In this document: positions 7,677 to 43,536 of the stretch, one piece after another
Layout of the letters: each line of letters starts with the position of its first letter
How positions within the stretch are numbered: the first letter of the stretch is position 1
From: Candidatus Levybacteria bacterium RIFCSPHIGHO2_02_FULL_40_18
GTDB lineage: Bacteria > Patescibacteriota > Microgenomatia > Levybacterales > GWA1-39-11
Reading direction: 5' to 3'
DNA: 64,000 bases
NCBI GenBank assembly: GCA_001782235.1
Contig: MFOC01000002.1
Span: forward strand, 42,912 to 106,911
The notes under the pieces: generated by a model
Database searches by the model: none
Seen by the model: only the letters and a program-made list of their open reading frames with translations
What the model was told of the DNA's origin: nothing
Position numbers and translations under genes: made by a program

Positions 7677-7680
7677 CTTT

Positions 7681-7766
7681 TAGTTTGTAACGTTCGTAAG
7701 GTTCGTAAAGTTCATAAAGTACTCAACTTTACAAACTTTAAAAACTTTATAAACCTTATAAACTAG
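7681..7766. repeat. palindromic intergenic element built of 9-nt units (GTAANGTTC x4 and inverse AAACTTTAN x4), termini TAGTTTGTAA...TTATAAACTAG
   Basis: Read directly between the ftsW stop and murG start. The right-end CTAG contains the ftsW TAG stop. Confidence 0.55.
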
Positions 7767-15811: not shown

Positions 15812-15938
15812 CTAGAAATTGGTTATTAGAAATTAGAAAATGGTTCGGAAATTAGAAATTGGAAATTGGAATTTAATTACCATTTTCTATTTTCAATTCT
15901 CCATTACTATTTTCTATTATCTATTAACTATTTTCTAG
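15812..15938. repeat. palindromic AT-rich intergenic element (family A/B) built of GGAAATT heptamer repeats and their inverse, termini CTAGAAATTGG...AACTATTTTCTAG
   Basis: Four direct GGAAATT-like 7-mers followed by their inverted copies (CCATTTTC). Bounded by CTAG at both ends. Second copy at 41290..41417. Confidence 0.6.
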
Positions 15939-28115: not shown

Positions 28116-29255
28116 CTATAAAATTCCCAAGATTTTAGCCTTGAACCTTTCGAATGAGAATCTATTAGCATTTTTACGGCAATCTTTCCCATTATAGCGG
28201 CTTGCCCGGAAGCTTTTCAACTTCGAAGCTAATGATTGAACGGTTTGTTTATCAAAAAATACACCGGTTTTCCCCTCGACTATAATCTCTTCTGCCCCAC
28301 CACCCCGAAACGCAATAACAGGCTTGTCGAAGGTTTGCGCTTCAACCATGGTTAATCCAAAATCTTCAACTCCGGGGAACACAAGTGTCTTGCAATTTGC
28401 GTAGTAATATTTAAGATCCGAATCAGAAACATATCCTAAAAAATCAACAGTCGGTCCCGCCATTTTTTTAAGACGATCGAATTCGCTTCCAGTTCCTATG
28501 ATCTTTAACGGCGCGCGAACCTTATTTGCCGCTTTTACAGCAAGGTCGATTCGTTTATAGGGAACTAGTCTCGAAACGATTAAAAAATAGTTTTGAATTT
28601 TGAATTTAGAATTTTGAATTTGTTTCGGATTTCGAATTTCGGATTTCGAATTTAATGGGCGCATCATTAATGGCGGATAAATAACTTCCGATTCTAATCC
28701 GTAATACTTTTTGATTCGACTTTGAACTGTTTCCGATATTGCAATCAATTTGTCTGGCCTTCGTGCTGCAATTTTGTCCCAAAAACGAAGATAGGAAACA
28801 ACCGGCCAAATTATAATTCGAAAAATTGGATTCGAAAAATAGTCTTTGTGTCCGCTCCAAAGATACCTTGTGGGCGTTAAAATAATCGAGATGTGTTTCG
28901 TCTGAGGTTTTGTAATAATGCCTTTTGCAGCCTCAGAAGTTAACGATATAACCAAATCGAAGTCTGAAAAATCGAACGATTCAAATGCAACTGGCATAAG
29001 AGTTGCAAAAACTTCATGATGAGAAGATGCAAACGGGATTTTTTGAAGGAACGACGTTTTTACTGGAATTTTTCTTGCCCAAGAAGCGCGGTCTTCTTTG
29101 TAAACTGATGTAAACAAAACCGAATCGGGAAAAATTTTGCGCAAAGCTATAATAACACGCTCCGCTCCACCCCACTTATTGACTCTATCATAAACCAACG
29201 CCACTTTCATGGGAAGATTATAACATCTTGACAAGTCAATACCAAACCTATACAA
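28116..29255 (-). CDS. family 4 glycosyltransferase (GT4)
   Basis: C-terminal GT-B motif VFPGVEDFGLTMVEAQTFDKPVIAFRGGGAEEII (E-x7-E). The interdomain linker carries a translated 7-nt tandem repeat. Confidence 0.8.
   Translation of the reverse strand: MYRFGIDLSRCYNLPMKVALVYDRVNKWGGAERVIIALRKIFPDSVLFTSVYKEDRASWARKIPVKTSFLQKIPFASSHHEVFATLMPVAFESFDFSDFDLVISLTSEAAKGIITKPQTKHISIILTPTRYLWSGHKDYFSNPIFRIIIWPVVSYLRFWDKIAARRPDKLIAISETVQSRIKKYYGLESEVIYPPLMMRPLNSKSEIRNPKQIQNSKFKIQNYFLIVSRLVPYKRIDLAVKAANKVRAPLKIIGTGSEFDRLKKMAGPTVDFLGYVSDSDLKYYYANCKTLVFPGVEDFGLTMVEAQTFDKPVIAFRGGGAEEIIVEGKTGVFFDKQTVQSLASKLKSFRASRYNGKDCRKNANRFSFERFKAKILGIL
28582..28648. repeat. in-CDS tandem 7-nt repeats (TTTGAAT x4 then TTCGRAT x4)
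   Basis: Tandem units read directly from the sequence. Translated as NSKSEIRNPKQIQNSKFKIQN in the GT4 interdomain linker. Confidence 0.7.
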
Positions 29256-29256
29256 T
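29228..29256 (+). promoter_or_regulatory. near-consensus sigma70-type promoter (TTGACA-17 nt-TACAAT) for the toxin-antitoxin operon
   Basis: TTGACA at 29228..29233, a 17-nt spacer, then TACAAT at 29251..29256. Lies 10 nt upstream of the antitoxin ATG at 29266. Confidence 0.5.
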
Positions 29257-29265
29257 CGTATTATT

Positions 29266-29553
29266 ATGCAGAGAGTAATAGTTCAAGTTCCAATGAGCCA
29301 AAGTTTAAAAAGCATGGCAGAAACTGTTGCTTCTGATATGGGTTTTTCGTCCTTACAGGAAGCAATTCGAGTCATCTTAACAAAGCTATCAAAAAAGCAG
29401 TTAACCTTAAGGATTGAGGAACCTGAAGAAATAACTGATCTCTCCCCCACCGCAGAAAGAAGATTTAAAAAAGCGCTTGCCGATATCAAAGCAGGAAAAA
29501 ATATCTATAAGCCAAAAAATAAAGAGGAATTCTTCAAAATGCTCCGTTCATGA
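29266..29553 (+). CDS. type II antitoxin (putative ribbon-helix-helix, RelB/DinJ-like)
   Basis: 95 aa. The ATGA overlap places its stop inside the toxin start codon. N-terminal beta-strand/helix pattern. Confidence 0.5.
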   Translation: MQRVIVQVPMSQSLKSMAETVASDMGFSSLQEAIRVILTKLSKKQLTLRIEEPEEITDLSPTAERRFKKALADIKAGKNIYKPKNKEEFFKMLRS

Positions 29554-29819
29554 AGACCTACTTCACGAAAAGTTTTAAAAGAGCATACAAGGAAAGAATT
29601 GAGTCTAATCCAAAATTAGTAAACAAATTCGAGGAAAGATATGACCTATTTTTAGAAGACCCTTCGAACCAACTTCTTTCAGATCACCCACTTGGCAAAA
29701 ACCTAACAGGATTTAGAGCATTTTCTGTCACTAAAGACGTAAGAGTCGTGTACCATATTCATAATAACATTGCCTATTTTATTGACATCGGCACCCACAC
29801 CCAAGTCTATAAAAAATAA
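29550..29819 (+). CDS. type II toxin, RelE/YoeB/ParE superfamily
   Basis: LGKNLTGFRAFSVTKDVRVVYHIHNN...IGTHTQVY parallels the YoeB/RelE core LKHNLSGFWSRRIT..RLVY...H.Y. 89 aa. Confidence 0.75.
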   Translation: MKTYFTKSFKRAYKERIESNPKLVNKFEERYDLFLEDPSNQLLSDHPLGKNLTGFRAFSVTKDVRVVYHIHNNIAYFIDIGTHTQVYKK

Positions 29820-29906
29820 GACACACCCAATTTTTGCGATAGCAACTTTTGGGTGTATAAAGTCTCTCGAAGAAGAGGTGTGGATCTAGACAACCCGGAG
29901 GGTTGA

Positions 29907-31043
29907 TTAGCTTGAAACCTTTTCTTTAACTGCCGAATTATAGATGCTTAGCGTTTGTTTCGCCATTTCTTTCCATGAGAATTGTTTGGCGCGCGTTTTG
30001 CCTTGGGCAATTAATTCTTTTCGGGATTCTTCGATTAATGAACACGCAAAGGAGATTTTCTGTTTTATATCACTTACATCGCTAGGGTTGCAATAGATAG
30101 CGGCGTTTGAACAAATTTCTCTATGGACGGGAATGTCTGAAACAATGACTGGACAGGAAAGAGACATTGCTTCAACTGCCGTCAATGAAAAGCCTTCTAA
30201 GAATGATGGAACGATGGTTGCTGTCGCATTGGAATAAAGCGAAAAAAGATCAGAATCTTTAACGTTCTCAAAAAATATCGTATTTGCCCCTATATTTAAT
30301 TTTTCTATTTGTTTTTCTATCCTTTTGAAAAAATAATCTCGTTTTCCAACCAAGATAAGCTTTACATCATGATTTTCGTAACTATCGTAGAGAAAATCTC
30401 TGAATGCTGAAAGCAATCCCTCAATATTTTTATGTGGATAGAAATTTCCTACACGCAAAATATATCTTCCTTCGATGAGTGGCGTGTGGCGGGTAGCACG
30501 TAGCAGGTGGTCGATGCCGCCTTCGTATGTCACCTCAACTTTAGAAGGATCAATATTGAGATAAGTTTTCAAAAGATCGTCGCGGACCGCATTTGAGGGA
30601 ACAATAATTTTTTTTGATCTATAAACCGCGTTTGATAAAACCGCATAGTATCCAATGCGTTTTACTAGATATAAGGATAAAGGCAATGTTGACGCTCGAC
30701 CCGTGTTAAATTTATTGACGATTAAATCATGAATCGTGACGATAAACGGCTTATGATAGAAAATTGGAACCGAAAAATATGGGAAATGCATCAAGTCCAG
30801 ATTTTCCTTGTTTAAAAGCTTGGGAAATAAGACTTGTTCGGTAACTGAATGCCAAGGAAAATCTGCTTTGACAACTGACAACTGACCACTGACAACTGAC
30901 TTAATTGCTTTTTCATCATCTGTACGAGCAAACAAGATATATTCGTTTTTTTTGTCGAGCTGAATAAGATTCGAAACAAGATTACGAATGTAACGCCCTA
31001 CTCCTGTTTCATTCCAAAGCCGAACATCAATACCAATCCTCAT
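29907..31043 (-). CDS. family 4 glycosyltransferase (GT4)
   Basis: GT-B C-domain motif VPSFLEGFSLTAVEAMSLSCPVIVSD. Carries the in-CDS 7-mer repeat ACAACTG x4. Confidence 0.8.
   Translation of the reverse strand: MRIGIDVRLWNETGVGRYIRNLVSNLIQLDKKNEYILFARTDDEKAIKSVVSGQLSVVKADFPWHSVTEQVLFPKLLNKENLDLMHFPYFSVPIFYHKPFIVTIHDLIVNKFNTGRASTLPLSLYLVKRIGYYAVLSNAVYRSKKIIVPSNAVRDDLLKTYLNIDPSKVEVTYEGGIDHLLRATRHTPLIEGRYILRVGNFYPHKNIEGLLSAFRDFLYDSYENHDVKLILVGKRDYFFKRIEKQIEKLNIGANTIFFENVKDSDLFSLYSNATATIVPSFLEGFSLTAVEAMSLSCPVIVSDIPVHREICSNAAIYCNPSDVSDIKQKISFACSLIEESRKELIAQGKTRAKQFSWKEMAKQTLSIYNSAVKEKVSS
30870..30900. repeat. in-CDS tandem 7-nt repeat (ACAACTG x4, one variant ACCACTG)
   Basis: Read directly. 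Translated as SVVSGQLSVV near the GT4 N-terminus. Confidence 0.7.
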
Positions 31044-31083
31044 GGTTTTAAGTTGTAAGTTTTAAGATGTAAGTAATTTCTTA
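31044..31083 (-). promoter_or_regulatory. conserved 5' leader motif shared by two adjacent GT genes
   Basis: Coding-strand sequence GAAATTACTTACATCTTAAAACTTACAACTTAAAACC sits directly before the ATG. Paralogous copy at 31990..32030. Confidence 0.45.
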
Positions 31084-31101
31084 AATCGTATATCATACAT
31101 T

Positions 31102-31989
31102 TTACCAACCAGAGATACGCTTCTTTAACGCAATTCCAGTTAGCACCAACATCCTAATTATACTTGGGTATTTATCTTTGTAGTGTTTATCATAAAAGAT
31201 TCTCATAGCGGCAAATCTTGCTTCATGGGCTCTTTTTCTTATTTCGCGGGTTGCGGTTGAATAGCTTTTTGAATCTTTTTTAAGTCCGCCGGATACCCCT
31301 TTATAATGAAGGATTTCAAATTCTGGAACAAAATAAATTTTCCAACCCCGCTCTTTTAACCTGTAACAAAAATCAATATCCTCACCGTACCAAAAGAAAT
31401 CCTCATCCCACCATCTCACCTGTTCCCCTGCTTCTCTCCTGACCAACATAAATGCGCCAGCTAAAGCGTCAACCTCATGAGTTTTGTTTAAGTCTAAATG
31501 TCCCAAACTGTATCCTGCAAATATTTTTGATTTTTTAAACAATTTCGAAAGACTTGAAAAATGCGACAATGCTCTCCATGGTGTTGGAAATCCTCTATGG
31601 GAAGCGTCGTCAAGTCTGCCACTTGGCAGGCGAACAAAACATGTTGCAGCGCCCGCATCTTTATTATGATCCATAAACTCAACCACCCCGTCAATTGTAT
31701 TTTCATAAACAACCGTATCCGTGTTCAAAAACAGAACAAACCGGCCTCTTGCTTCTTTAACGCCAATATTATTTGCTCGTGAAAAACCTACATTTTCCTT
31801 ATTTTGAATAAGTTTTAAGTTTGCGAGCTTAAGTTTTAAGATTTCACTGACTGAATCGTCCTCTGAATTATTATCAACCACGATTATTTCATAAGAATTC
31901 TTTTTAACTGTCCGAACAATCGATCGAATACATTCAATTGTCAAATCCCGGGTATTAAAGGAGACAATAATGATAGATAGGTCAACCAT
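31102..31989 (-). CDS. family 2 glycosyltransferase (GT2)
   Basis: N-terminus LSIIIVSFNTRDLT...VVDNNSED, and DxD region. Confidence 0.8.
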   Translation of the reverse strand: MVDLSIIIVSFNTRDLTIECIRSIVRTVKKNSYEIIVVDNNSEDDSVSEILKLKLANLKLIQNKENVGFSRANNIGVKEARGRFVLFLNTDTVVYENTIDGVVEFMDHNKDAGAATCFVRLPSGRLDDASHRGFPTPWRALSHFSSLSKLFKKSKIFAGYSLGHLDLNKTHEVDALAGAFMLVRREAGEQVRWWDEDFFWYGEDIDFCYRLKERGWKIYFVPEFEILHYKGVSGGLKKDSKSYSTATREIRKRAHEARFAAMRIFYDKHYKDKYPSIIRMLVLTGIALKKRISGW

Positions 31990-32030
31990 ACTAGCTTTTA
32001 AGTTTTACGATGTAAGATTTAAGTAATTTC
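31990..32030 (-). promoter_or_regulatory. second copy of the conserved GT-gene leader motif
   Basis: Coding-strand GAAATTACTTAAATCTTACATCGTAAAACTTAAAAGCTAGT before the ATG at 31989. Shares GAAATTACTTA.ATCTTA and AACTTAAAA with the 31044 copy. Confidence 0.45.
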
Positions 32031-32059
32031 ATACATCTTAGATCTTACAACTTACCTAC

Positions 32060-33229
32060 TTATAGGTTATTCCAAACTGTGTTTAGGTTATTGCCGATTA
32101 CCTTCCAAGAATACTCACGCTCAACCAGTTTCCGAGCGTTTCTTGCTAGTCTTCTTCTTAAGTTTAAATCATCTAACATCTTTTCAAGCCTCTCTTTAAA
32201 TTCCGATTCTTCGATTACGACCACCAAGTGCTCTCCGTCTTTTACGTCAAGCCCTTCAAGTCTTTGGGAAAGAGAAATAACAGGAACACCGGCAGCCATA
32301 GCCTCAAGAATCTTAAAGTTTGTACCCCCACCGAGTCTGATAGGAGCAACCATTACATCCGCTTTTTCATACTCATCTTGAATCTTAGGAACAAACTCAT
32401 TAATTATAACCCTGTTGTCATCCGCGAACTTCAAATCTCTTGCTTTCTTCCCAATAATTGTTAAAGTTATATCATTGCCTAAATTCTTAAAGACGGAGTC
32501 ATAGAAATAATTAATTGCGTCTATATTTGGAAAATAAGTAAAATTTCCTACAAATAGAAGTTTCGTTCCTCTTCTTTTTTTAGGAAGATTGAATTTATAA
32601 TCATCAATATCAACGCCGTTTCGTATTATTTCGCATTCGCCAACATACTTTCTTACTTCACGAGCATCGGTATCAGAAACCGTAATGCAAAGATCGGCCT
32701 TTTTAAACAGCGCTGTTTCTTCGCTGCGAATTTTGTCAACCTGGAATTCATATAGAGGTCTTATAAGGATATTCGTTTTTTGTGCGTATTCGCCATACAT
32801 CTTGTATTCAATATTCTCAGTTCCGAATACCTGCTTTGCTCCAAGATTTCTAATCTTATCCGATATATAAAAGGCTGTATAAAAAGATTCAAAGTGAACA
32901 ATGTCGATTTTCTTATCAGCGATAATCCGCAGTAAATCCGTGAGAATCGAGGATGTGAGGTAAAGAGTTTTAAAAATTGAATCACCGGAGAATAAACCCA
33001 ATATATTTCTTATATCCCTTACCTTTCTGCGGCTGGTTATTCCCGCGACTTCAACGCCTATCTTTTCCATTTCTACAACCGAATCCCTCCATGCATTATC
33101 TCTTACAAAAGAGAATAAATATTTCTTAATATCGACTCCAGAATATTTAAGCATATGATAGGCACGATTCTTTCCCCCGGTATTCGTGGGATAAGGAAAA
33201 TCATAAGTGACAAATAAGACTTTTTTCAT
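32060..33229 (-). CDS. family 4 glycosyltransferase (GT4)
   Basis: N-terminal MKKVLFVTYDFPYPTNTGG and C-terminal GGGTNFKILEAMAAGVPVIS. Confidence 0.8.
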   Translation of the reverse strand: MKKVLFVTYDFPYPTNTGGKNRAYHMLKYSGVDIKKYLFSFVRDNAWRDSVVEMEKIGVEVAGITSRRKVRDIRNILGLFSGDSIFKTLYLTSSILTDLLRIIADKKIDIVHFESFYTAFYISDKIRNLGAKQVFGTENIEYKMYGEYAQKTNILIRPLYEFQVDKIRSEETALFKKADLCITVSDTDAREVRKYVGECEIIRNGVDIDDYKFNLPKKRRGTKLLFVGNFTYFPNIDAINYFYDSVFKNLGNDITLTIIGKKARDLKFADDNRVIINEFVPKIQDEYEKADVMVAPIRLGGGTNFKILEAMAAGVPVISLSQRLEGLDVKDGEHLVVVIEESEFKERLEKMLDDLNLRRRLARNARKLVEREYSWKVIGNNLNTVWNNL

Positions 33230-34701
33230 TTTAGTTTTAATATCAAATACTCTTTGCTTGACGAAACGTGTTCATACATTGTCCCGAATCCGCTAAAATC
33301 ACTTGGGGTGGGATTTGCAATTACCAAATGCGTTGCGCCCCGCTCGATCAATTTTTCAATTGGTTCTTGAAATGTGGGCCAGCCGCGCCTTGCGCTCATA
33401 TTAAGCAGGGTTGTGCTTCCGTCATAAGGCGCAATTACGATTGCATCTTTTGGCAAAATCTCATCGGCTCTCTTTCCGGCCGCAACCATTCCCCGATCAT
33501 TAATATTGAAGTAATCCCGAACCAGCATCCACGAAAAATAAAAGGATGTCAAAATTAAAACCCCGAGAACGGCAGATGCAGTAACGTGATTGCTCTTCTC
33601 GGAGGTGAATTCGAATAATTTACTTGCTCCAAGACCGGCAAAGATACTAATTGTAGGAATTATGGCAATTTGATAATAGTCGTGTCTTACGTTACCCGTT
33701 GCTATAACCGAAACATAAAGCGCCGATGCAACAGCAAATGAAAGAAAAAATCCCGCATTCTTATCTAACTGCCACCCATTCGACTCACTCCGTTTACTCA
33801 AGGCAAACAAGCCACCTGCCACGAACAAAATTCCTACATACCCCAGTATCAATTTCGTTATTCTTTCAAAACCAAGCCACCTAAAAAATGCCGGTCGGAA
33901 ACGAATTCCGTCACCATTGAAAAGCCAACTTGACGCTGGAATTCCTTCCGGGAAATGTCCTATCCACCACCGCCAAAGAGTAAAAGGCACTAAAGATAAA
34001 ATTGCGAACACCCAGAGTTGCCATTTTTTTATAAAATCGACCCCGAACGCCTTCCACGCTAAATACGCCATTGGCAGTGTAAAGAAAAGAGCATAAGGCT
34101 TGAGCAAAAGCGCCAGTGCTGTAAAAAGAATTGATAAACCGAATGGCACCAAATACTTTATACTTAATACTTTATACTTAATACTTTTTTCGAGCCAGCG
34201 ATCGAAAAAATAAATTCCTCCAAGAATCGATGCTGCCATAGATGGATCAGGGAGAATTGTCCGTCCAAAAAATATCGAAAATGGCAGAAAAAGATAAAAA
34301 AGGCCGGCAAAAAATCCGGCAAGTTCACTTGCATATCTCTTCACTAAAAGATAGACAAAACATGCTCCTGCAAGACTTGCGAAAATAGAAATCAATCTGC
34401 CCCATTGTTCGAGCGCTAATATTCCGAATACGCCGAATAAACCTGCCTGGACTGCGTTATAAATCGGGAACTCTACAAATCGGTACCCACTTGGATTGTC
34501 AGTGCCAGATTGAATATTTGAGATATCAAAATACCGGGGGTATAAAAGGTTTATACTATCGCGAGCAAAAATTGTCGATACTGCATTTGTGTCGCTCTGC
34601 CTGAAAGCATGCCAATCCGCCACCGGATTATCAAACCTATAAAGCCTAACAATAAATCCAAGCACAAAAATCCCCACCAAAACCCAAGAAATCCTTCTCA
34701 T
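33226..34701 (-). CDS. GT-C fold polytopic membrane glycosyltransferase (ArnT/PMT-like, family 39/83-like)
   Basis: ~12 TM helices. First extracytoplasmic loop has the conserved acidic/aromatic region RFDNPVADWHAFRQSDT typical of lipid-phosphate-sugar dependent GT-C enzymes. Confidence 0.55.
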   Translation of the reverse strand: MRRISWVLVGIFVLGFIVRLYRFDNPVADWHAFRQSDTNAVSTIFARDSINLLYPRYFDISNIQSGTDNPSGYRFVEFPIYNAVQAGLFGVFGILALEQWGRLISIFASLAGACFVYLLVKRYASELAGFFAGLFYLFLPFSIFFGRTILPDPSMAASILGGIYFFDRWLEKSIKYKVLSIKYLVPFGLSILFTALALLLKPYALFFTLPMAYLAWKAFGVDFIKKWQLWVFAILSLVPFTLWRWWIGHFPEGIPASSWLFNGDGIRFRPAFFRWLGFERITKLILGYVGILFVAGGLFALSKRSESNGWQLDKNAGFFLSFAVASALYVSVIATGNVRHDYYQIAIIPTISIFAGLGASKLFEFTSEKSNHVTASAVLGVLILTSFYFSWMLVRDYFNINDRGMVAAGKRADEILPKDAIVIAPYDGSTTLLNMSARRGWPTFQEPIEKLIERGATHLVIANPTPSDFSGFGTMYEHVSSSKEYLILKLK

Positions 34702-34760
34702 AAGCTTAATTCTAGTTTATTTTATAGCATCAATCAAACTTTTTGTTATAATCTCGAGAA

Positions 34761-35705: not shown

Positions 35706-36530
35706 AATGATTAGTGGTACACTAGTGGTACACCCGTCGGGTGAATTAGCTTGGCACCTCACGGCATTTACTCTAAAATTAGATTTTTTATCTTTGCAAG
35801 ATTTCTCTGGTAACCAACCCCATCATTAATAAATTCGCTATATTTCTTCGATCCACCAAATATATTCAAAAGGAATTCAGTTTTTACGAAACTCGCACTT
35901 TTATCTTGGAAGTAAAACTGATAAGACGTATAGGGGTAATTTTTAAGATCGCCAACTTCAATAATATGTGCCGTTACAGGATTTAGATGAATATAACGCG
36001 ATATATGCATAAAATCCTCAGTATCCTCTATCCGCCTACTCTTAAAGGGATTTTGAAACAAACTCCCGTTTCGATCATGTTTTGTATTAAAATATTTGGC
36101 AAAACTATTTTGGACATTAGATGCGAAGATTTTTATTCCATCATCTCGTAATTGCTCCACCAATAAATGGTAATGGTTAGGCATAAAAGCAAATGCATAA
36201 ATTTCGACTAATGGAAAATGATCTTTCACACCAGACAGATATGAATCTCTTAGCTTTATGGTCATTTGTTTAAACTTGGAATATCTCATTGACTGTTGAT
36301 ATCGATAGAAATCAACCGAGTTAACAATCTGAGTCAAATGCCTTAATGAAGAGAATATTGTTTCATTTCCTACGGACTTATTGAAGATATGATAAATTTC
36401 CCCAGTAGCCAATACATCTCTTTTTGCCGACATATCTCAGACTACTATAGAATCCGTAGGGTGTCAATACAATACCACCCGTCGGGTGTATTCGTTTGGA
36501 CCCGTCGCTCAGTCCGCCCCAATTAATCCG
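35706..36530. mobile_element. IS200/IS605-family (RAYT-type) element: Y1 HuH transposase flanked by subterminal hairpins
   Basis: Transposase ORF flanked on both sides by the motif ACCCGTCGGGTG (35733..35752 and 36476..36495, same orientation). Right flank also has the direct repeat TAGTGGTACAC x2. Confidence 0.7.
35768..36433 (-). CDS. REP-associated tyrosine transposase (RAYT) / IS200-like TnpA
   Basis: YHIFNKSVGNETIF (YH..RG motif), HuH motif MPNHYHLLV, and catalytic-Tyr region RYIHLNPVTAHII...NYPYTSY. Confidence 0.8.
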   Translation of the reverse strand: MSAKRDVLATGEIYHIFNKSVGNETIFSSLRHLTQIVNSVDFYRYQQSMRYSKFKQMTIKLRDSYLSGVKDHFPLVEIYAFAFMPNHYHLLVEQLRDDGIKIFASNVQNSFAKYFNTKHDRNGSLFQNPFKSRRIEDTEDFMHISRYIHLNPVTAHIIEVGDLKNYPYTSYQFYFQDKSASFVKTEFLLNIFGGSKKYSEFINDGVGYQRNLAKIKNLILE

Positions 36531-36560
36531 CCTCATTAGCTTTATTGTATCAAAAAAACG

Positions 36561-39500
36561 TTATTGTGGAATGATGGGGTGGCCGTCTTTGAAACGGATT
36601 ACTTCTTCTATGCTTCCATCGTCTTTAAATTCGAATACATGATCTTGAACTGAGGTTCCTGCAAGACTCAAAGCCTCAGGAAGATTTGAATGAACATATA
36701 CTTTTAAGTTGTCATTTTGGAAGGCAAACCAAAGCGCATCAGAAAGGCCCACGGGAAATATCCACGCCTCCCCTGTTTTGATCGAAACATTTACAAACCT
36801 AAATCTTAGATCATTTTTTGACCATGAATCGGAATAGAGCTCATCGATTGAAACAAAGAACTTCTGTACCTTCTGTCCTGCAGTCTGCCAATCACCGTGA
36901 ATTTGCTGAACCTGGATGATATGGAAGAGTGAAAAAATGGCAATCAAAACACCAACGCTCATAATAGCTATGTCTCGTCCATAGGAAGTTAGATATTCGA
37001 ATATCTTTCTGATTACCAAACCCAGTATCAAAATCAGCCCTAGTGTTGGAAGATAGCTGTATCTTGAGGTAATATTCCCAAGCCCCAAAAAAGGAAGGAG
37101 AGCTATCACAAAGAATAACATACCAAATACGGTCACCTTTCTTTCATCTGCGGATAGATATTTAGGAATTATTTTGTATGCAAAGTAAGAAGCACCCAAG
37201 ATCAAGGGAACTAAGACTGCCGCAAGCAAAAGATTATCCCGAAGCCCCGTTCGCAGTGCCGAATACACCGGGAACGAGGAAGGACCTAGAGCCGTTAATA
37301 GAAGATATCCGATTATATTACCGAGAACATTGAACGGTAACTTTATAATACTGTAACTGTAATCTCCGCTAAACCAGTGGCTTCCTGAAGCAAGTCTTAC
37401 CAAAAGATAAACTAAAATCGGAGAGAATAAAAATATGTGGCCCGACTTTTTAATGATCTTTCCTATTGATCCAAATCCTTCCTGAGCGACTTTATAGGCA
37501 ATTATTAGAAGCGGAGTCACAATTCCTACTTCGTGGAAAAGGAAGCCCAGGGATATGAAAACAATAGTTGCAATATAATATAGTGGATTCCTTTTCTCAT
37601 CCCAAACAGAAAACGCCAGAAGTGCGAGAAGCGCAAAAGCCGCGTTGAACAGATATCCGATTGAGGAGATCCAAAAAACGGCTTCTTGATACCCGCTCAT
37701 AAAAAGGAACAATAGTGCCGAAAGACCTGCAAGAATATTGTTCTTGAGGATCTTTCTTGCCAATAAATAGAATAAGACCGAAACTAAGAAATGCAAGATA
37801 AGCGAAGTTATATGGTATACAACCTGATTAAGCCAAAATATAGGATACATTGCCGAAAAGAATATTTTTGTACCGGGCCGGAAGAAAAATCCCTGAGAGT
37901 CAAGAAAATATTTGTAAATTCTCTCGAAAATTGATTTACAGGATGAATAATCACAGTCGGCCGCCCACCTAAACCAGGTAAAGTCGTCTCCTGTGAAATA
38001 GTTGCTAATCATTGGCGAGAATATTACAATTGTTGCAAGCAGCAAATAAAATATAAACGCATATGTTGAAATTGCCGCTTCCTTAAGTTCTTTATACAAA
38101 TCCACAGGTTTTTTTTGATATAAAGCGAGTGTTCCAAGAACTATGCCAGTCAAAAGCCACAGGGAAAAGGCGATTTTTGATGCCTCAAATACATCAATTA
38201 GAGTTGCATTAAACGCAAGACCAATAACTCCCGCAACATATCCTAAAACAAAACTTCTAACAACTCTATTTCTTACCTCTGGTAAGACTTTCTTTATGTA
38301 AATGCCTATTGTTAAGAATATGCCAAAAAAGGAGGCAAGCCCTAAAAGGCCTGTTTCGCCCAATATCCTAAGATAGTTATTATCAACGGCAAGACTGACT
38401 GATCCATATCCGCTTCCTAAAAATACATTCTTGGCAAATATGGCAAGAGTGCGGGGCCACTCCCCCTGAAACCGTGTGGTAAAGGAAAGGTCGTAGGCCG
38501 AGGCCCTTTTGACAATAAAATTACCATGAAGAATTACAACTTCTGCAGACAGAGATGCTTCCTCATCCGGATCAAGTTCGTAGAAAAAATTTCCCAATCT
38601 TTTAACAACCGGTGATAATGAAAGATTTATGTAGCCCGTTCCTTGCGGTAAATTCTCTCCTGTTGAAACATTGCTTGCAGTTACAACCGGGACTTCTGAG
38701 GGAAACTTTAAGGGTTTAGTAAATACTGGATCGGTTGGCCTCTTGAAAGTAGATGAACGAGTAGATTCAACTTCAAGAATCTCGTCAATCTTTCCACCTT
38801 TCATTGCGTGCTGAACTTCACCCAAGTCTTTGACAAAACTTTGACCTATTCTTTTATCTTTAAAATATGAAAATGGGACAAATTTTACGTTTCCAATGGC
38901 ATTCCCTGTTTGAGCATCCACCAAAACGTCCGTTTCGCGGATAGTGCTACCAAACCTTGTAAAAATTGATGGTTGAAATATAACAGAGAGGACGGCGAGA
39001 GCAAAAACAGCGGGCAAAAAAACAAAAATCAACTTCCTCTTTACAAATAAAAGAACAAAGAAAAGAGCTATAAAAAGAACGACAAAAGATATTCTTGAAA
39101 CTGTCCAGAAAAGAACAATGCCGCCTATAACTATAGCTGCCGCAAGCCCTATTTTTACAAGCCAGTTTTTAAATCCAAAAAATAAACCAGCGAGTATTGA
39201 AATAGCAAGAACAAGATATGCTGCAAAATCATAATGCCCGGCAAATGTTGATGGCACGCGGGAAAGAGAAGATAGCTGAATCGGAATTCCTTTGGCAAAT
39301 TCCTCATTCATTGTAAGATACGCCGGTAATCCGAAAAACTTCTGTCCTATACCATATAGAGATACTGCGACTAAAGTTACCGCTAAGACGGTAATTGCAT
39401 ATTTTAAGAAACTCTTATCCCGCATGGCAGAATAGGCAACAAAAAATAAACTCATATACTCTATATGTCTGACATAAGCAAGATATGAAACATTAGGGAA

Positions 39501-39800
39501 TACGTTGGCAAGAGTTGGGAAAAGCAGCACTACTCCGTGAATTGTCGCAATTGCACCGATCGTCCAATATATTAATATGGGAACCGTTAATGGGGTTTTA
39601 ATAGTTATTTTCTTTCTAAACAAAAAAACTAACCATAAAAGTAACGCAAGTAGCACAACGAAATCCTCTGCTCTTACATAAACCCAAGTATTCCGGACAT
39701 CAAGAATTGGTATTTTGGGGAATAATGGAATAAATGCCAAAAGAAATAAGGTGAAAACAAATAAAATATTGTCGGAAATCCACGAGAAAATTTTTTTCAT
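36561..39800 (-). CDS. 1079-aa polytopic membrane protein: O-antigen ligase/polymerase-like (Wzy_C-like) N-terminal domain fused to a GT-C-like domain
   Basis: More than 20 predicted TM helices. N-terminal half resembles O-antigen ligase family proteins. C-terminal half has the GT-C-like segment DDFTWFRWAADCDYS...FFFRPGTKIFFSAMYPIFW. Confidence 0.5.
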   Translation of the reverse strand: MKKIFSWISDNILFVFTLFLLAFIPLFPKIPILDVRNTWVYVRAEDFVVLLALLLWLVFLFRKKITIKTPLTVPILIYWTIGAIATIHGVVLLFPTLANVFPNVSYLAYVRHIEYMSLFFVAYSAMRDKSFLKYAITVLAVTLVAVSLYGIGQKFFGLPAYLTMNEEFAKGIPIQLSSLSRVPSTFAGHYDFAAYLVLAISILAGLFFGFKNWLVKIGLAAAIVIGGIVLFWTVSRISFVVLFIALFFVLLFVKRKLIFVFLPAVFALAVLSVIFQPSIFTRFGSTIRETDVLVDAQTGNAIGNVKFVPFSYFKDKRIGQSFVKDLGEVQHAMKGGKIDEILEVESTRSSTFKRPTDPVFTKPLKFPSEVPVVTASNVSTGENLPQGTGYINLSLSPVVKRLGNFFYELDPDEEASLSAEVVILHGNFIVKRASAYDLSFTTRFQGEWPRTLAIFAKNVFLGSGYGSVSLAVDNNYLRILGETGLLGLASFFGIFLTIGIYIKKVLPEVRNRVVRSFVLGYVAGVIGLAFNATLIDVFEASKIAFSLWLLTGIVLGTLALYQKKPVDLYKELKEAAISTYAFIFYLLLATIVIFSPMISNYFTGDDFTWFRWAADCDYSSCKSIFERIYKYFLDSQGFFFRPGTKIFFSAMYPIFWLNQVVYHITSLILHFLVSVLFYLLARKILKNNILAGLSALLFLFMSGYQEAVFWISSIGYLFNAAFALLALLAFSVWDEKRNPLYYIATIVFISLGFLFHEVGIVTPLLIIAYKVAQEGFGSIGKIIKKSGHIFLFSPILVYLLVRLASGSHWFSGDYSYSIIKLPFNVLGNIIGYLLLTALGPSSFPVYSALRTGLRDNLLLAAVLVPLILGASYFAYKIIPKYLSADERKVTVFGMLFFVIALLPFLGLGNITSRYSYLPTLGLILILGLVIRKIFEYLTSYGRDIAIMSVGVLIAIFSLFHIIQVQQIHGDWQTAGQKVQKFFVSIDELYSDSWSKNDLRFRFVNVSIKTGEAWIFPVGLSDALWFAFQNDNLKVYVHSNLPEALSLAGTSVQDHVFEFKDDGSIEEVIRFKDGHPIIPQ

Positions 39801-39868
39801 AAAATTGAATAGCTAAATAGCTAAATGGCTACATGGTTTTTAACCATTCAACTATTCAACCATTTTAA

Positions 39869-40738
39869 CTATACTTTGAGCATCCTCTTGTATGTATCGG
39901 TTAAGTATTTATTATTTATGATTTTACCTAAAACTACAAGAGCAAAAGATTTAGAAAAAAGTAAAAACTTCACAAAACTATACGAAAAAGGATTGCCGTG
40001 TTTTTTTTGAAAATAGATTAATCCCTTATGAATGTTCCTGATTGCAAACCCGCGACTTGAACTGGCATAACCTTCGTGAATTACTTCGATTGAGGGATCG
40101 AATACAACCTCAAGTCCTTCTTTTTTAACTCTGTAACAAAACTCCATGTCCTCAATATACATGAATAAGTTCTCATCGAATCCGTTAAATCTTGCAAATA
40201 GGTCGCGACGAACAGCCATAAAACCACCGCTCACAAAATCTACCTGCTGATTTCTTCCTGGCGAGAATCTTATTCCGAACGTCTCATCTAAACCTAATGC
40301 TGTAAGAAAAACTTCCGATGTTTTTAAAAATTTACCTGCCGATTTCTCACTTTTTAGGTTTCTATTTAAAATCTTTCCCCCCGCCACCCCAACATTGACA
40401 TCTTCTTCGAATATAGAAACTAAATTATCTAGCGAACCCTTATTCCACTCACAGTCGGGATTTATAAACAGAAGGTACTCTCCTCGCGCTTCTTTTGCTC
40501 CGATATTAATCCCTTTCGCGAATCCAAAATTCTCCTTGTTCTCTATAATTTTGACTTTTGACTTCAAATTTTGACTTTTGACTTTTGAATTTTGAATTAT
40601 CTCTAATGTTCCATCGGTCGAATTATTATCCACAACAATAACTTCAAAAGCTTTGTCTTTATTAAATTTAAAGATACTCTCAAGAAGCCTTTCGATGTAT
40701 TTCGCTGAATTATACGTGACGATAATTATCGAAACCAT
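39869..40738 (-). CDS. family 2 glycosyltransferase (GT2)
   Basis: N-terminus MVSIIIVTYNSAKYIERLLESI...VVDNNSTDGT. Carries the in-CDS 7-mer repeat. Confidence 0.8.
   Translation of the reverse strand: MVSIIIVTYNSAKYIERLLESIFKFNKDKAFEVIVVDNNSTDGTLEIIQNSKVKSQNLKSKVKIIENKENFGFAKGINIGAKEARGEYLLFINPDCEWNKGSLDNLVSIFEEDVNVGVAGGKILNRNLKSEKSAGKFLKTSEVFLTALGLDETFGIRFSPGRNQQVDFVSGGFMAVRRDLFARFNGFDENLFMYIEDMEFCYRVKKEGLEVVFDPSIEVIHEGYASSSRGFAIRNIHKGLIYFQKKHGNPFSYSFVKFLLFSKSFALVVLGKIINNKYLTDTYKRMLKV
40551..40606. repeat. in-CDS tandem 7-nt repeats (TTGACTT / TTGAATT, ~8 units)
   Basis: Read directly. Translated as NSKVKSQNLKSKVKIIEN inside the GT2 between the DNNS region and the ENFGFAKGIN motif. Confidence 0.7.
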
Positions 40739-41280
40739 GCTGCCCTTCCCAGACGATACGTGGGGTTTTTGAGTTTTCGCTCGCCAATTACTTTTGCCGG
40801 AACGCCGCCCACAATTTCAAACTCCCCAACATCGCGTGTAACTACTGCTCCTGCCCCAACCACAGCTCCTTTACCGATTTTTACTCCCGGCAAAATTATG
40901 GCGCGGGGCCCTATAAAAACGTAGTCGCCGATTTCAACAGGAGATGTTACGGCTTTAAAATTTTCGTCATTTATATCATGTTCTGCATTGTAGATCATTA
41001 CTTCACTCGCAATATCTACGTGATCACCAATTATTAATTTGTCTCGACCGTCCAAAACCGCGTTTTCTCCAATAATCGAATCTTGACCTATCGATATCTT
41101 ACATGCATCGTAAAAAACAGCACCCATGTGCAGGGTTGAGCCTTTGCCGATTTTCATGCCCTGAATCCTATAGAAAAACCGCCTTACGTGATGAAACGGA
41201 ATGTGACCAACGCATTTTAATACCATATTGTCACACTCTAATAGTATTGCCTTAAGTCTTCTTATGATTTTATTAAACAT
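40726..41280 (-). CDS. hexapeptide-repeat sugar O-acetyltransferase (WcaF/MAT-like)
   Basis: Left-handed beta-helix repeats IGENAVLDGRDKLIIGDHVDIASEVMI...IGPRAIILPGVKIGKGAVVGAGAVV. Confidence 0.8.
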   Translation of the reverse strand: MFNKIIRRLKAILLECDNMVLKCVGHIPFHHVRRFFYRIQGMKIGKGSTLHMGAVFYDACKISIGQDSIIGENAVLDGRDKLIIGDHVDIASEVMIYNAEHDINDENFKAVTSPVEIGDYVFIGPRAIILPGVKIGKGAVVGAGAVVTRDVGEFEIVGGVPAKVIGERKLKNPTYRLGRAAWFR

Positions 41281-41289
41281 ATATTTATT

Positions 41290-41417
41290 TAGAAATTGGT
41301 TAATAGAAATTTGATATTGGTTATGGAAATTAGATATTGGAAATTTGTATATTTTTAACTATTATCTATTTTCCAGTTTCCATTACCATTTTCCATTTTC
41401 TCACAACTATTTTCTAG
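41290..41417. repeat. palindromic AT-rich intergenic element, second copy of family A/B (TAGAAATTGGTTAATAGAAATT...AACTATTTTCTAG)
   Basis: Termini nearly identical to the element at 15812..15938. Internal GGAAATT / CCATTTTC heptamer arms. The right-end CTAG contains the TAG stop codon of GT4 41414..42580. Confidence 0.6.
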
Positions 41418-42580
41418 CTTACTGGTTTTGCTGCTTCTTCCAAGGTGTGCAAAACCTGTCTTGCGCTCTTTTCCCAAGAAAACTTTTTAACCTGTTCGTG
41501 CCCTTTCTTAATCATGTCATCGCGAAGTTTTTTGTCTGACAAAACTTTTTCAATTTTCTCCGCGATGTCCGATACATCTTCCGGATTAAAGTAAATTGCG
41601 GCATCTCCTCCTGCCTCGGGAAGGGAAGAAACATTACTTGTTAAAACTGGACATCCGTATTTCATCGCCTCTAAAATTGGCAGACCGAATCCTTCATAAA
41701 GGCTTGGCAATACAAAAAGTTCTGCGCTTTCATAAAATGCCGGAAGCTCTTCATCGGTAACATTTTCTAAAAATCGAACCCGATCTTCAACTCCGTATCT
41801 TCTTGGCGCTTCGAGAATTTCCTCATACTGCCACCCCCGCCTCCCAACAATCACCAGTTTTAAATCTTCTCCCACCCCTGAGGTGAGGACGCTTTCACCT
41901 CGGGGGTGAATAACGGCCGAAAATGCTTCGACTAGTCGTACAATATTCTTACGAGGTTGAAGTGTCCCGACGAATAAAATAAATGTCTTTTCGATTGAAT
42001 ATTTTTCAAGAATTTCTTTTTTTGACATTTTAGATTTATTTGCCTCCTTAATACCAAGATAAGCTACGTGTACGCGAGCCGCAGGGACATGGTACTCCTT
42101 GATTATATCATCCTTTGAGCTCCGGCTAATGGTGATGATTTTGCGAGCGGAACGAACAGAATATCCTCCCCACAAGTTGAGTTGAAGCAGATCCTTCTTC
42201 TTAAAAAGCTTCGGGAAATGCTTATATGAAATGTCTAGAATTGAAATTACTTGAGGACAAGGGGCGAACAACGGACCATAGTGGGTTGGCGAGAAGAAAA
42301 CATCAAATTCTTGCTTGCGAATAGCAGGGCTTAAGGCAAAAATTGTCCAAAGAGGCTTATTTGGCAATATTTCGTAGCGCCATCCTTCCCGTTCGCGAGG
42401 CAAGTCGGATGTAGGTTCGACAGGCAAAAAAATGACATACTCGTTTTGTTTATCAATCTTGTTTAGTTCGATTAACCATTCAAAGGCAACCTCTGAACTT
42501 CCAACCCTGTTTGGTAATCCATTCAAATCATATCCAAATCTTGGAATAACTCCTTCGTATCCATTAATTCCTATCTTCAT
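41414..42580 (-). CDS. family 4 glycosyltransferase (GT4)
   Basis: N-terminal MKIGINGYEG and C-terminal LPSLYEGFGLPILEAMKYGCPVLTSN. Confidence 0.8.
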   Translation of the reverse strand: MKIGINGYEGVIPRFGYDLNGLPNRVGSSEVAFEWLIELNKIDKQNEYVIFLPVEPTSDLPREREGWRYEILPNKPLWTIFALSPAIRKQEFDVFFSPTHYGPLFAPCPQVISILDISYKHFPKLFKKKDLLQLNLWGGYSVRSARKIITISRSSKDDIIKEYHVPAARVHVAYLGIKEANKSKMSKKEILEKYSIEKTFILFVGTLQPRKNIVRLVEAFSAVIHPRGESVLTSGVGEDLKLVIVGRRGWQYEEILEAPRRYGVEDRVRFLENVTDEELPAFYESAELFVLPSLYEGFGLPILEAMKYGCPVLTSNVSSLPEAGGDAAIYFNPEDVSDIAEKIEKVLSDKKLRDDMIKKGHEQVKKFSWEKSARQVLHTLEEAAKPVS

Positions 42581-42609
42581 AATTAGTATTAAGAATTAAG
42601 TATAAAGTA

Positions 42610-42978
42610 TTAAGTATAAGTCTGGGAAGCCTTTATTAAACCATTGAGTAGCTTGTGAACTAAAATTATTGAATTCTCAATTATCAAGAAGTTTTCATTA
42701 GATACATATTCAAGTTCTTTCGAGATAATCAGTTGATTATGTAACTCTGTTACGGATCCTAACGCAATATAGTAAAATTGATTTTTTTCCTTCTTGTTTC
42801 TTCTTGAAAATCCCTCAGCAATATTACTAGTTACTGAAATAGCGCATCTTCGCATTTGTGTAGTAAGAGCGAATAATTCTTCCCTTGGAAATTGTTTAGT
42901 AATCTTATAAATTAACAGGACAAGCTTTATACCTTCCTGCCAAGCTATAAGGTCTTTAAAAGTGACGATTTTTGTCAT
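42610..42978 (-). CDS. four-helix-bundle protein (23S rRNA intervening-sequence-type, TIGR02436-like)
   Basis: 122 aa, all-helical, with a conserved-looking segment CAISVTSNIAEGFSRRNKKEKNQFYYIALGSVTEL typical of this family. Confidence 0.6.
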   Translation of the reverse strand: MTKIVTFKDLIAWQEGIKLVLLIYKITKQFPREELFALTTQMRRCAISVTSNIAEGFSRRNKKEKNQFYYIALGSVTELHNQLIISKELEYVSNENFLIIENSIILVHKLLNGLIKASQTYT

Positions 42979-43002
42979 ACTTAATACTTACTTCTTTATA
43001 CT

Positions 43003-43536
43003 TTATACTGTTGAGATTCCTGGATAGACAACACGTATCCTGCTCTCGTCTATCCCCAGAATCTCAAGTGCGTCTTTTTTGCTTGATTCAGAAATACAAA
43101 ACACGATATTGGACTCTTTTTTTACCCAAGAGAGTTTTCTTTTCTGAACTGAAACAATTTTTTGATCAGTCTCCTCCGGATGTTTATAAACAATAAGATC
43201 ATAAATTATAGTTACCTTTTTCGCTTTTCGCGCCGGCGGCTCTGTCCAATCGGAAGTAATAAACCAATCCACATCTCCCACAAACAGTTCTACCGGCAAA
43301 ATATGGAGCTTGTTCCATAATGTATCTAGAAGCGTCGGTGGGATTGGAAATTTGACAATTCGAACATTAATTGGAAATTGGAAATTGGAAATTGGAAATT
43401 GCCTTCGCAGGGAAGAAAAGAATAAAACAAATTCATGTTCGTCATTTTTAACCATTTCCCTTACCAAATTCGAAAGATAATTCGCTACTCCAGTATTGCC
43501 GTATGCAATCTGACTCACATCAATCCCGATCTTCAT
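43003..43536 (-). pseudogene. GT4 glycosyltransferase N-terminal fragment (177 aa, lacks the C-terminal GT-B domain)
   Basis: Starts MKIGIDVSQIAYGNTGVANY like the intact GT4s at 41414 and 29907, but terminates after the N-domain (VVYPGISTV*). The four-helix-bundle gene follows instead. Contains the TGGAAAT x4 repeat. Confidence 0.55.
43372..43399. repeat. in-CDS tandem 7-nt repeat TGGAAAT x4 (same unit as intergenic element family A/B)
   Basis: Read directly. Translated as QFPISNFQFPINV. Flanking ATTGGAAATTTG also occurs in element B. Confidence 0.7.

Follow-up and report, generated by a model that had tools for sequence, protein, structure and literature searches.

Heptanucleotide repeats were first reported in cyanobacteria (Calothrix PCC 7601). 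In many bacteria heptanucleotides form the most abundant class of long simple sequence repeats (SSRs), for which polymerase slippage has been proposed (Mrazek 2007, as reported in PMC4692102 and PMC4679880). Here we analyse tandem 7-nt arrays that lie inside glycosyltransferase (GT) genes of Candidatus Levybacteria bacterium RIFCSPHIGHO2_02_FULL_40_18, a member of the candidate phyla radiation (CPR; Patescibacteria), in a stretch of 64,000 nt (contig MFOC01000002.1, positions 42,912-106,911) that we call the window. An earlier reading of this DNA, hereafter the original prediction, took four of the arrays to be candidate contingency loci, in which gain or loss of a unit would switch surface glycosylation. 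Our analysis leads us to another view: the four tracts are probably fixed members of a lineage-wide population of heptamers resembling the short tandemly repeated repetitive (STRR) sequences of cyanobacteria, renewed by slippage or copying and filtered by selection, and not on/off switches.

STRR sequences of heterocystous cyanobacteria and the long simple sequence repeats (LSSRs) of Mrazek 2007 consist, in the accounts given by PMC4692102 and PMC4679880, of tandem 7-nt units belonging to a few families that occur at many loci, with an excess of period 7, hairpin-forming inverted pairs, and variation in length and sequence among related species. The Levybacteria arrays resemble them in these respects. 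They differ in their CPR host, in their AT-rich units and in being about 70% genic at recurrent orthologous loops, whereas the cases described in those accounts are mainly intergenic; they are also linked to cassettes that carry an intervening sequence protein (IVP) gene, as shown below. A narrower parallel is offered by the TAACTGA repeats of marine Beggiatoaceae, cyanobacteria and Bacteroidetes, direct heptamers whose orientation within open reading frames (ORFs) is set by stop codons and whose reverse orientation translates as LSVISYQ (PMC4679880). The unit TCAGTTG of one Levybacteria array (array 2, translated as SVVSGQL) is one base away from the TCAGTTA of those repeats. TAACTGA repeats lie mostly just 5′ of start codons and have a single dominant unit, whereas the Levybacteria arrays have many units and are mostly intragenic.

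The contingency loci of Haemophilus, Neisseria and Campylobacter resemble the Levybacteria arrays in having a non-triplet unit in surface-glycan genes, where slippage would alter expression. Genuine contingency tracts are long and homogeneous, change in length many orders of magnitude faster than the per-site substitution rate, and are usually OFF in about half of the cases in any single genome. An example with a 7-bp unit is the repeats that control hmw1A and hmw2A in H. influenzae (PMC8262952, PMC12721329). These occupy promoter or 5′-untranslated positions and have many more copies than the arrays described here.

Two further systems bear on repeats that enter genes. The Rickettsia palindromic elements are said, in work by Ogata et al. 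of 2000, to be selfish palindromes of 100-150 nt with a conserved sequence, inserted in frame in protein genes. The intervening sequences (IVSs) of 23S rRNA genes in Coxiella, Leptospira and Salmonella carry a PF05635 ORF in an inverted-repeat stem; in Coxiella, the S23p ORF is preceded by three to four GACAGAT units, which vary in number among strains, and RNase III cleaves at the first repeat (PMC4990558).

Heptamer arrays in the window and in related loci

All four predicted heptanucleotide arrays were recovered by Tandem Repeats Finder (TRF), a few bases away from the positions first assigned, and ORF translation confirmed that they are read in frame in intact genes on the minus strand (Table 1). 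The window sequence was found identical in contigs of the Rifle aquifer Levybacteria metagenome-assembled genome (MAG) GCA_001782635.1 and in one independent ENA assembly. Array 1 consists of the coding-strand units TTCAAAA, TTCGAAA and TCCGAAA in two sub-arrays of ~32 nt, which TRF also scored as a 32-nt unit present twice, (TTTTGAA)~4.5 and then (TTTCGRA)~4.5. It encodes 'LNSKSEIRNPKQIQNSKFKIQNY', residues 186-208 of GT4a, in the linker that joins the two GT-B domains as judged by Pfam domain limits. Array 2, with the coding-strand unit TCAGTTG (TCAGTGG in one unit), encodes 'SVVSGQLSVV', residues 49-58 of GT4b. Array 3 has about seven copies of GTCAAAA or TTCAAAA on the coding strand, includes an exact 20-nt duplication (TRF 20-nt unit, 1.9 copies, 100% matches), and encodes 'IIQNSKVKSQNLKSKVKII', residues 47-65 of GT2. 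Array 4 is a perfect run of 4.7 copies of ATTTCCA on the coding strand; the GT4N peptide is 'QFPISNFQFPIN', with 'FPISNFQFPI' within residues 46-57.

A separate, stricter scan counted five period-7 arrays in the window, where 20 third-order Markov simulations predicted 0.0, a result that rejects nucleotide composition or chance as their source; periods other than 7 were practically absent. TRF reported a total of ~18 period-7 arrays, many of them intergenic. Two genic arrays had been missed by the original prediction. Array 5 encodes 'KSIKYKVLSIKY' in a PMT_2-like membrane glycosyltransferase (33226-34701); because either of its two heptamers alone would yield a stop codon, this array is restricted in both phase and length. 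Array 6, which is weaker, lies inside rsmH/MraW (17968-18888), a housekeeping gene for a 16S rRNA methyltransferase (Pfam PF01795, E 5.9e-92). Five of the six genic arrays fall in a cell-envelope glycan cluster, spanning ~26 to 44 kb of the window, whose products are several enzymes of the GT4 and GT2 families, the PMT_2-like protein, a Wzy-like protein, a hexapeptide acyltransferase, a nucleotidyl transferase and a sugar-phosphate transferase. Even so, the arrays are not specific to glycosyltransferases, with one array in rsmH and period-7 arrays found lineage-wide.

The genic arrays are direct tandem repeats of 30-64 nt without a convincing inverted partner; a candidate partner for array 1 within GT4a was rejected, being explained by the self-complementary TTCGAA core. 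Three of the four array types (units TTCAAAA, TCAGTTG and GTCAAAA) would produce stop codons if oriented the other way. As with the Rickettsia elements, repeat DNA persists in ORFs where the frame is kept and the surface site is tolerant, and is translated as extra peptide. The conserved palindrome of ~100-150 nt is lacking, however, and the arrays are shorter, non-palindromic and composed of many different units.

To place the window among its relatives, we compared it with 55 related loci (labelled L with a number) retrieved around the membrane-GT gene, 749 kb in total with the window; the source genome is thus sampled by 64 kb and its relatives by cluster-centred loci. Period 7 accounted for 94 and period 14 for 33 of the 215 tandem arrays, 127 together. 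Counting as genic those arrays that lie inside an ORF of at least 120 aa, 65 of the 94 period-7 arrays (~70%) are genic, and all 65 are in frame. Of the 127 arrays with period 7 or 14, 93 lie in genes, yet non-genic DNA has 8.5 times as many per base. The 94 period-7 arrays comprise at least 40 canonical units, with the AGTATWA, AATTTYC and TTCAAAA/GTCAAAA families scattered over different genes and intergenic sites. Genic and non-genic arrays of one locus had a unit family in common in 15 of 37 cases, against 8.5 ± 1.9 for other loci, a level of sharing attained in 1 of 2000 permutations. The set displays three traits of STRR sequences and LSSRs, namely tandem 7-nt units, an excess of period 7 over other periods and over chance, and unit families dispersed over many loci.

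Arrays recur at the same places in orthologous genes. Hot spots were found in GT4a, GT4b, GT2 and its paralogue GT2b, GT4N and the membrane GT (Table 1), and orthologues of the NTP_transferase, Bac_transf, Hexapep and GT4d families had no arrays in the loci compared. The hot-spot bins are structurally equivalent connections in orthologues and paralogues. By orthologue alignment, the GT4a site is a hypervariable loop of 9 to ~60 aa, and the GT4b loop that holds array 2 has a constant length across all orthologues aligned. An AlphaFold model of GT4N (mean pLDDT 86.9) places the repeat segment between strands 35-41 and 58-63, where it forms the lowest-confidence internal block. Alignments and model together bear out the proposal that conserved GT motifs flank the arrays, which occupy variable connections. 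Across the best 120 of 1941 GT4N homologues (E <= 1e-20), the loop is ~20 aa long and in many reads FPISNFQFP, NFQFSIFNFQS, KFLISNFKFL or SIQYPVSSIQY, sequences of the kind that a heptamer translated in all three frames yields.

Units differ from genome to genome at these loops, and some units recur in different settings. The membrane-GT loop holds AAAGTAT/TAAGTAT in the window, L026 and L072, AATTTTC in L014 and L041, AAAATTC in L024 and ATATCAA in L021. AGTATTA-type arrays occupy the loop of array 3 in L004 and L072, the ATTTCCA-type unit of array 4 is also found at the GT4N loop of L022 and L015, and AATTTTC lies there in L035. One 14-nt pattern, AAAGTATTAAGTAT, is found unchanged in more than one gene and genome, as well as in the arms of the mobile cassette described below. 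Concerted evolution of the arrays is directly visible. The window and L021 have TCAGTTG-like units in array 2, and L030 and L003 have TCAATTG-like ones; this G/A difference between sister lineages affects unit position 4 of all four units and leaves the length unaltered. AATTTCC alternates with AATTTTC at the GT4N loop among lineages. Fourfold-degenerate sites are saturated among these lineages (identity 0.21-0.34 against 0.27 expected from composition), and the arrays are still 96-100% periodic, so they are renewed rather than just inherited.

GC-rich translated inserts are nested within heptamer arrays at the GT2 loop of L042, the membrane-GT loop of L006 and L033 and the GT4a loop of L021, with peptides such as 'PSTPLGTS' and 'PSTKLRTG...FDKLTILSNVEG'. 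They bring to mind the small dispersed repeats that are found nested inside heptamer repeats of cyanobacteria.

Tract length among strains and assemblies

A one-unit change would alter the frame at each of the four arrays, as originally predicted, because their 7-nt units lie inside intact ORFs. No difference in tract length was seen among close strains or assemblies, however, and no OFF alleles were found among the genomes compared. The exact sequence of each of the four GT proteins, with its tract, is present on 27-32 contigs and in four or more NCBI MAGs. Variants in 90%-identity clusters that cover the tract have an unchanged tract length, one of them with two substitutions within array 2. 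Strain L059 (ENA sample ERZ4903185) is colinear with the window over 21,137 nt, with three substitutions and zero indels, in a stretch that includes ten period-7 arrays, six of which lie between genes, where frame selection does not act. Of the three substitutions, two (30895 and 30901) fall within the 32-nt array 2 and change KSVV to RSGV, which points to this array as a local hot spot of mutation or conversion without length change.

Wider searches gave the same picture. A search of ~5.8 billion protein clusters found no near-identical GT4N that was truncated or differed in length, and no frameshift at an array was found in orthologues of eight cluster gene families over the 55 loci. The comparison of array presence and length among orthologues, suggested with the original prediction, thus yielded units that differ among genomes and no frameshifted orthologue. 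A metagenome scan for near-identical strains returned relatives at <=84% identity only, and therefore carries no strain-level information.

An apparent array frameshift in the L024 membrane-GT orthologue was rejected. At 5328-5540 of that locus, a scaffold gap filled with Ns has the heptamer array and ~40 nt of flank duplicated on either side. Such arrays break or confuse assemblies and are able to mimic frameshifts.

Repeat-armed cassettes and hairpins

The IVS-like cassette between GT4N and GT4c contains an IVP gene (42610-42978) bracketed by inverted AGTATWA arrays. The gene product is an Avd-like four-helix-bundle '23S rRNA intervening sequence protein' (PF05635, E 6e-36; TIGR02436), and the two arms, 42585-42621 and 42977-43009, are 82% complementary over 33 nt. 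The AGTATWA family of the arms also forms the in-frame array 5. As in the IVSs of Coxiella, Leptospira and Salmonella, heptamers adjoin the start codon, and the PF05635 ORF lies within stem-forming terminal inverted repeats. The cassette differs in that both arms are wholly tandem heptamers and in that it sits between two glycosyltransferase genes, not in helix 25 or 45 of 23S rRNA; an Rfam scan of the whole window gave zero matches, hence there is no rRNA there.

A second copy in L072 (9837-10394), another Levybacteria genome, has 82% DNA identity to the window (42566-43009) over 444 nt and 88.5% protein identity. The downstream arm is identical at 33 of 33 positions, and the upstream arm has 24 copies in L072 against ~5 in the window. 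The surrounding genes of the two loci have protein identities of 40-79% only, and the cassettes occupy different intergenic sites, both immediately 5′ of a GT4 start (MKIGI...). Since the cassette is more similar than its neighbours and differently placed, we conclude that it is mobile, arms included. L072 further has AAGTATN arrays in its GT2 loop, its membrane-GT loop and intergenic DNA.

Tandem repeats adjoin every IVP gene examined. We examined the IVP loci of the window, L007, L009, L016, L023, L060-L063 and L072, together with the plasmid loci L064-L071. All 12 CPR IVP genes, from Levy-, Davies-, Gottesman-, Falkow- and Beckwithbacteria, are flanked by tandem repeats. Ten were scored quantitatively, with repeats on both sides in all, and two of L072 were judged by eye. 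The period is 7 in eight of the ten and 8 in two, following the IVP subfamily; the repeats are usually inverted and adjoin the start codon, and the 8-nt repeats belong to a divergent subfamily. As a control, 12 of 612 other ORFs satisfied the same flanking-repeat criterion. On plasmids of Calothrix, Nostoc, Geminocystis, Stanieria, Picosynechococcus, Pseudanabaena and Riemerella, all eight IVP genes sampled adjoin tandem heptamers (an octamer in one), which in three are strong on one side only. In the literature searched, we found no link between heptamers and an IVP ORF besides the Coxiella IVS (PMC4990558).

Repeat arms also form hairpins that carry no ORF. The palindromic elements A and B named in the original prediction exist, with 88% mean column identity and ends CTAGAAATTGG...CTATTTTCTAG, and contain GGAAATT or GAAATTR units; array 4 has its unit in common with both elements. 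Neither element was found in any related locus. It had been proposed that a mobile repeat family with the unit TGGAAAT seeded the arrays. A broader dispersed or mobile family is supported by the unit of array 4 in elements A and B, by the AGTATWA arms and by the within-locus sharing of units, but a single TGGAAAT seed family is not: the four arrays represent four unit families, among the at least 40 canonical units overall. Other hairpins have arms of 7-, 8- or 9-nt repeats, and those at 39800-39870 and 7676-7768 have almost uninterrupted predicted stems, so this genome contains repeat-armed hairpins of all three periods. A half-element related to the 31993-32060 hairpin lies at 31045-31074.

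The window also contains an HUH/Y1 transposase-like gene, which is a possible driver of the palindromic elements. Its product scores 54.6 bits against the REP-associated tyrosine transposase (RAYT) model NF047646, below the cut-off of 80. The pairing of this gene with elements A and B recalls REPIN/RAYT systems, from which it differs in that weak match, in the two element copies seen and in arms of tandem repeats instead of a REP consensus. Homologues of the gene stand at non-syntenic places in L014 and L004, and one is also present in L063; a syntenic, domesticated RAYT is unsupported, given the different placement in L014 and L004.

Pfam confirmed the host genes as GT4, GT4, GT2 and a GT4 N-domain, as named in the original prediction, except that its label of 'GT4 fragment' for the last was wrong. 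GT4N is a conserved, widespread stand-alone protein built of the GT4 N-terminal domain alone, and the best 120 homologues are all 172-195 aa long. In relatives, its gene lies immediately 5′ of the next GT4 gene, often overlapping a full-length GT4, and the two proteins may form a two-subunit arrangement. That GT4N is a fragment created by insertion of the IVP gene was rejected; the family is conserved and adjoins GT4c in relatives without the cassette. Between GT4a and GT4b, on the opposite strand to them, lies a YafQ-type toxin gene (29550-29819, +), and the small ORF upstream of it (29266-29553, +) is probably its antitoxin.

Table 1. Positions and properties of arrays, host genes, repeat-armed elements and loop hot spots; nucleotide positions refer to the window, residues to the proteins named.
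Feature	Position	Strand	Properties
Array 1	28590-28653	-	TRF 28591-28653: period 7, 9.4 copies, 81% matches
Array 2	30869-30900	-	TRF: TGACAAC x4.6, 92% matches
Array 3	40547-40598	-	TRF 40549-40595: TTTTGAC x6.9, 78% matches; continues to ~40598
Array 4	43369-43401	-	TRF: AATTGGA x4.7, 100% matches
Array 5	34152-34187	-	TRF: period 14 (AAAGTAT+TAAGTAT), 100% matches
Array 6	18654-18687	-	TRF: CAAGAAT, 77% matches; inside rsmH/MraW
GT4a	28116-29210 (to 29255 with TTG start)	-	Pfam GT4
GT4b	29907-31043	-	Pfam GT4
GT2	39869-40738	-	Pfam GT2
GT4N	43003-43536	-	Pfam GT4 N-domain only, 177 aa
GT4c	41414-42580	-	Full-length GT4
IVS-like cassette	42585-43009	-	IVP gene between inverted AGTATWA arrays
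Hairpin element A	15812-15937		Intergenic; imperfect ~126-nt palindrome, arms of tandem GAAATTR/inverted heptamers; RNA fold z-score -5.3
Hairpin element B	41289-41415		Between hexapeptide-transferase gene and GT4c; RNA fold z-score -3.3
Hairpin, heptamer arms (TTTAAGA / TACATCT)	31993-32060		Between GT2b and GT4d; RNA fold z-score -2.3
Hairpin, 8-nt repeat arms (AATAGCTA x3 + inverse)	39800-39870		Between Wzy-like gene and GT2; minimum free energy -27.2 kcal/mol
Hairpin, 9-nt repeat arms (GTTCGTAAN)	7676-7768		Intergenic; minimum free energy -28.9 kcal/mol
HUH/Y1 transposase-like gene	35768-36433	-	221 aa; PF01797 24.9 bits (cut-off 23)
Hot spot, GT4a	residues 190-209		Array in 8/25 orthologues
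Hot spot, GT4b	residues 40-59		Array in 10/30 orthologues
Hot spot, GT4b	residues 180-199		Array in 5/30 orthologues
Hot spot, GT2	residues 50-59		Array in 4/23 orthologues
Hot spot, GT2b (GT2 paralogue)	residues 50-59 (position equivalent to GT2)		Array in 4/29 orthologues
Hot spot, GT4N	residues 40-59		Array in 8/18 orthologues
Hot spot, membrane GT	residues 170-189		Array in 11/42 orthologues

Origin and significance of the arrays

We infer that slippage or copying generates the arrays and that selection acts as the filter. A small number of unit families serve as arms of intergenic hairpins, as inverted arms of the mobile IVP cassette and as solo arrays. Solo arrays would arise through slipped-strand events, or through copies taken from the repeat repertoire that the genome already has, and the same processes would homogenise them. 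Within genes, selection would retain arrays that are stop-free in all three coding-strand frames and preserve frame and loop length, and would eliminate changes of one or two units, orientations that create stops, and excessive length. The sites are tolerant surface connections, namely the GT4 N-domain β2-β3 connection, the GT-B interdomain linker, the GT2 loop that follows DxSxD and one membrane-GT loop, in which the arrays are translated as linker peptides with a period of seven residues, probably as passengers. The arrays turn over by concerted evolution on evolutionary time scales and are probably fixed in the population.

Several points weigh against this interpretation. No slippage event was observed directly in the four genic arrays, and simple expansion and contraction fits poorly with the constant loop length of GT4b and GT4N, since the frame survives only changes of three units. 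The recurrence of a unit at the same loop despite saturated synonymous sites could instead reflect selection on nucleotides or peptide. Units of arrays 1-3 (TTCRAAA, TCAGTTG and GTCAAAA) have no matching hairpin or IVP cassette in the 64-kb window. The comparative loci are all centred on one gene cluster, which makes the genome-wide distribution an extrapolation. Lastly, assemblies are consensus sequences, in which minority length variants would stay hidden and thus may exist.

The explanation put forward originally, that slippage-prone gain and loss of units toggles each glycosyltransferase and makes surface glycans phase-variable, now seems very improbable to us. It draws on the frame shift that any one-unit change of a 7-nt repeat in an ORF would cause and on the concentration of genic arrays in the glycan cluster. 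Concerted evolution implies that slipped-strand events do occur over evolutionary time, an intergenic arm of the AGTATWA family has grown to 24 copies in L072, the heptamer number before the Coxiella IVS ORF differs among strains (PMC4990558), and array 2 has attracted two of the three substitutions that separate the window from L059. Against this stand the identical proteins in independent MAGs, with tract lengths unchanged in their 90% clusters, the absence of indels relative to L059 even in the six intergenic arrays, and the lack of length-variant near-identical GT4N among the protein clusters. All 65 genic arrays are in frame, no orthologue of the eight families is split at an array, and one array sits in a housekeeping gene. 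The tracts themselves are short, at 4.6-9 units, and all but array 4 are imperfect (78-92% matches), unlike the long, homogeneous tracts that switch. Chance low-complexity sequence or an assembly artefact, for which one might cite the AT-rich genome (31-43% GC) and the duplicated array at the L024 scaffold gap, has a negligible probability, as Markov simulations expect zero period-7 arrays, independent assemblies of different samples contain identical sequence and related arrays occur in dozens of other genomes.

More serious, though still unlikely, is the view that the arrays are purely local microsatellites, produced by independent slippage of chance proto-repeats in tolerant loops and unrelated to the hairpins and IVP cassettes; equally unlikely is its companion claim that AT-richness and the stop-free constraint by themselves explain the limited unit repertoire. 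Hot spots do match hypervariable loops, the sub-array duplications (32-nt and 20-nt higher-order periods) are typical of slippage, and some convergence of units is to be expected since only 224 of 532 AT-rich cyclic heptamer classes are stop-free; the lack of matching hairpins for arrays 1-3 is also in its favour. Against purely local events stand the within-locus sharing of unit families, the identical 14-nt pattern in different genes, genomes and mobile cassette arms, and the presence of one unit at one loop in lineages whose synonymous sites are saturated. A selected function of the repeat would explain this last point, with perfect periodicity kept and loop length almost constant. A factor might recognise 7-nt RNA or DNA units, with RNase III, on paired arms, and the Avd-like IVP protein as candidates, or K/F/I-rich peptides might help these peripheral membrane enzymes to attach to the membrane. 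In keeping with such a function, all IVP genes examined adjoin 7- or 8-nt repeats whose period differs by subfamily, the first Coxiella IVS heptamer is a site of RNase III cleavage (PMC4990558), and repeat hairpins fold significantly better than shuffled sequence. But units at one loop vary widely among genomes and many orthologues have no array there, solo genic arrays lack a nearby complementary partner, and the peptides differ in character, KSKVKSQ being basic and FPISNFQ hydrophobic, so that we regard a selected function, in either form, as distinctly unlikely. We therefore retain fixed, renewed and selection-filtered arrays as the probable explanation of the four tracts.

A further step, which we offer tentatively and hold to be doubtful, is that STRR-type heptamers and IVP genes are two parts of one widespread mobile system. 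The cassette would then be the complete form, with a repeat arm, the IVP ORF and an inverted repeat arm, and hairpins without an ORF and solo arrays would be its derivatives. The arrays in glycosyltransferase genes would be solo arms that landed in, or were copied into, tolerant loops, and the IVP protein would recognise the 7-nt units (8-nt in some subfamilies) or aid their spread. The repeats beside all IVP genes examined, the joint mobility of cassette and arms, and the change of period with IVP subfamily are compatible with this view. If true, this would supply an origin for STRR sequences and a function for a large family of orphan proteins.

The literature searched did not yield any account of heptamer repeats for Levybacteria, Microgenomates or CPR bacteria. 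Relative to STRR sequences and LSSRs, what is new is the mostly intragenic location at orthologous hot spots, the visible concerted turnover, and the tie to IVP cassettes, which reaches cyanobacteria and Bacteroidota. We advise against annotating or counting these tracts as genes for phase-variable glycosylation in CPR bacteria, and predictors of contingency loci that rely on repeats would over-call in such genomes. Translated repeats form low-complexity segments with a period of seven residues that are able to mislead alignments and domain calls. Because the arrays lie within conserved genes, orthologous sites can be compared across many genomes, and Levybacteria therefore offer an unusually readable record of heptamers, with concerted evolution and with units in common with a mobile cassette that bears an orphan Avd-like protein. 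The link between IVP genes and tandem 7- or 8-nt repeats spans three phyla and is testable.

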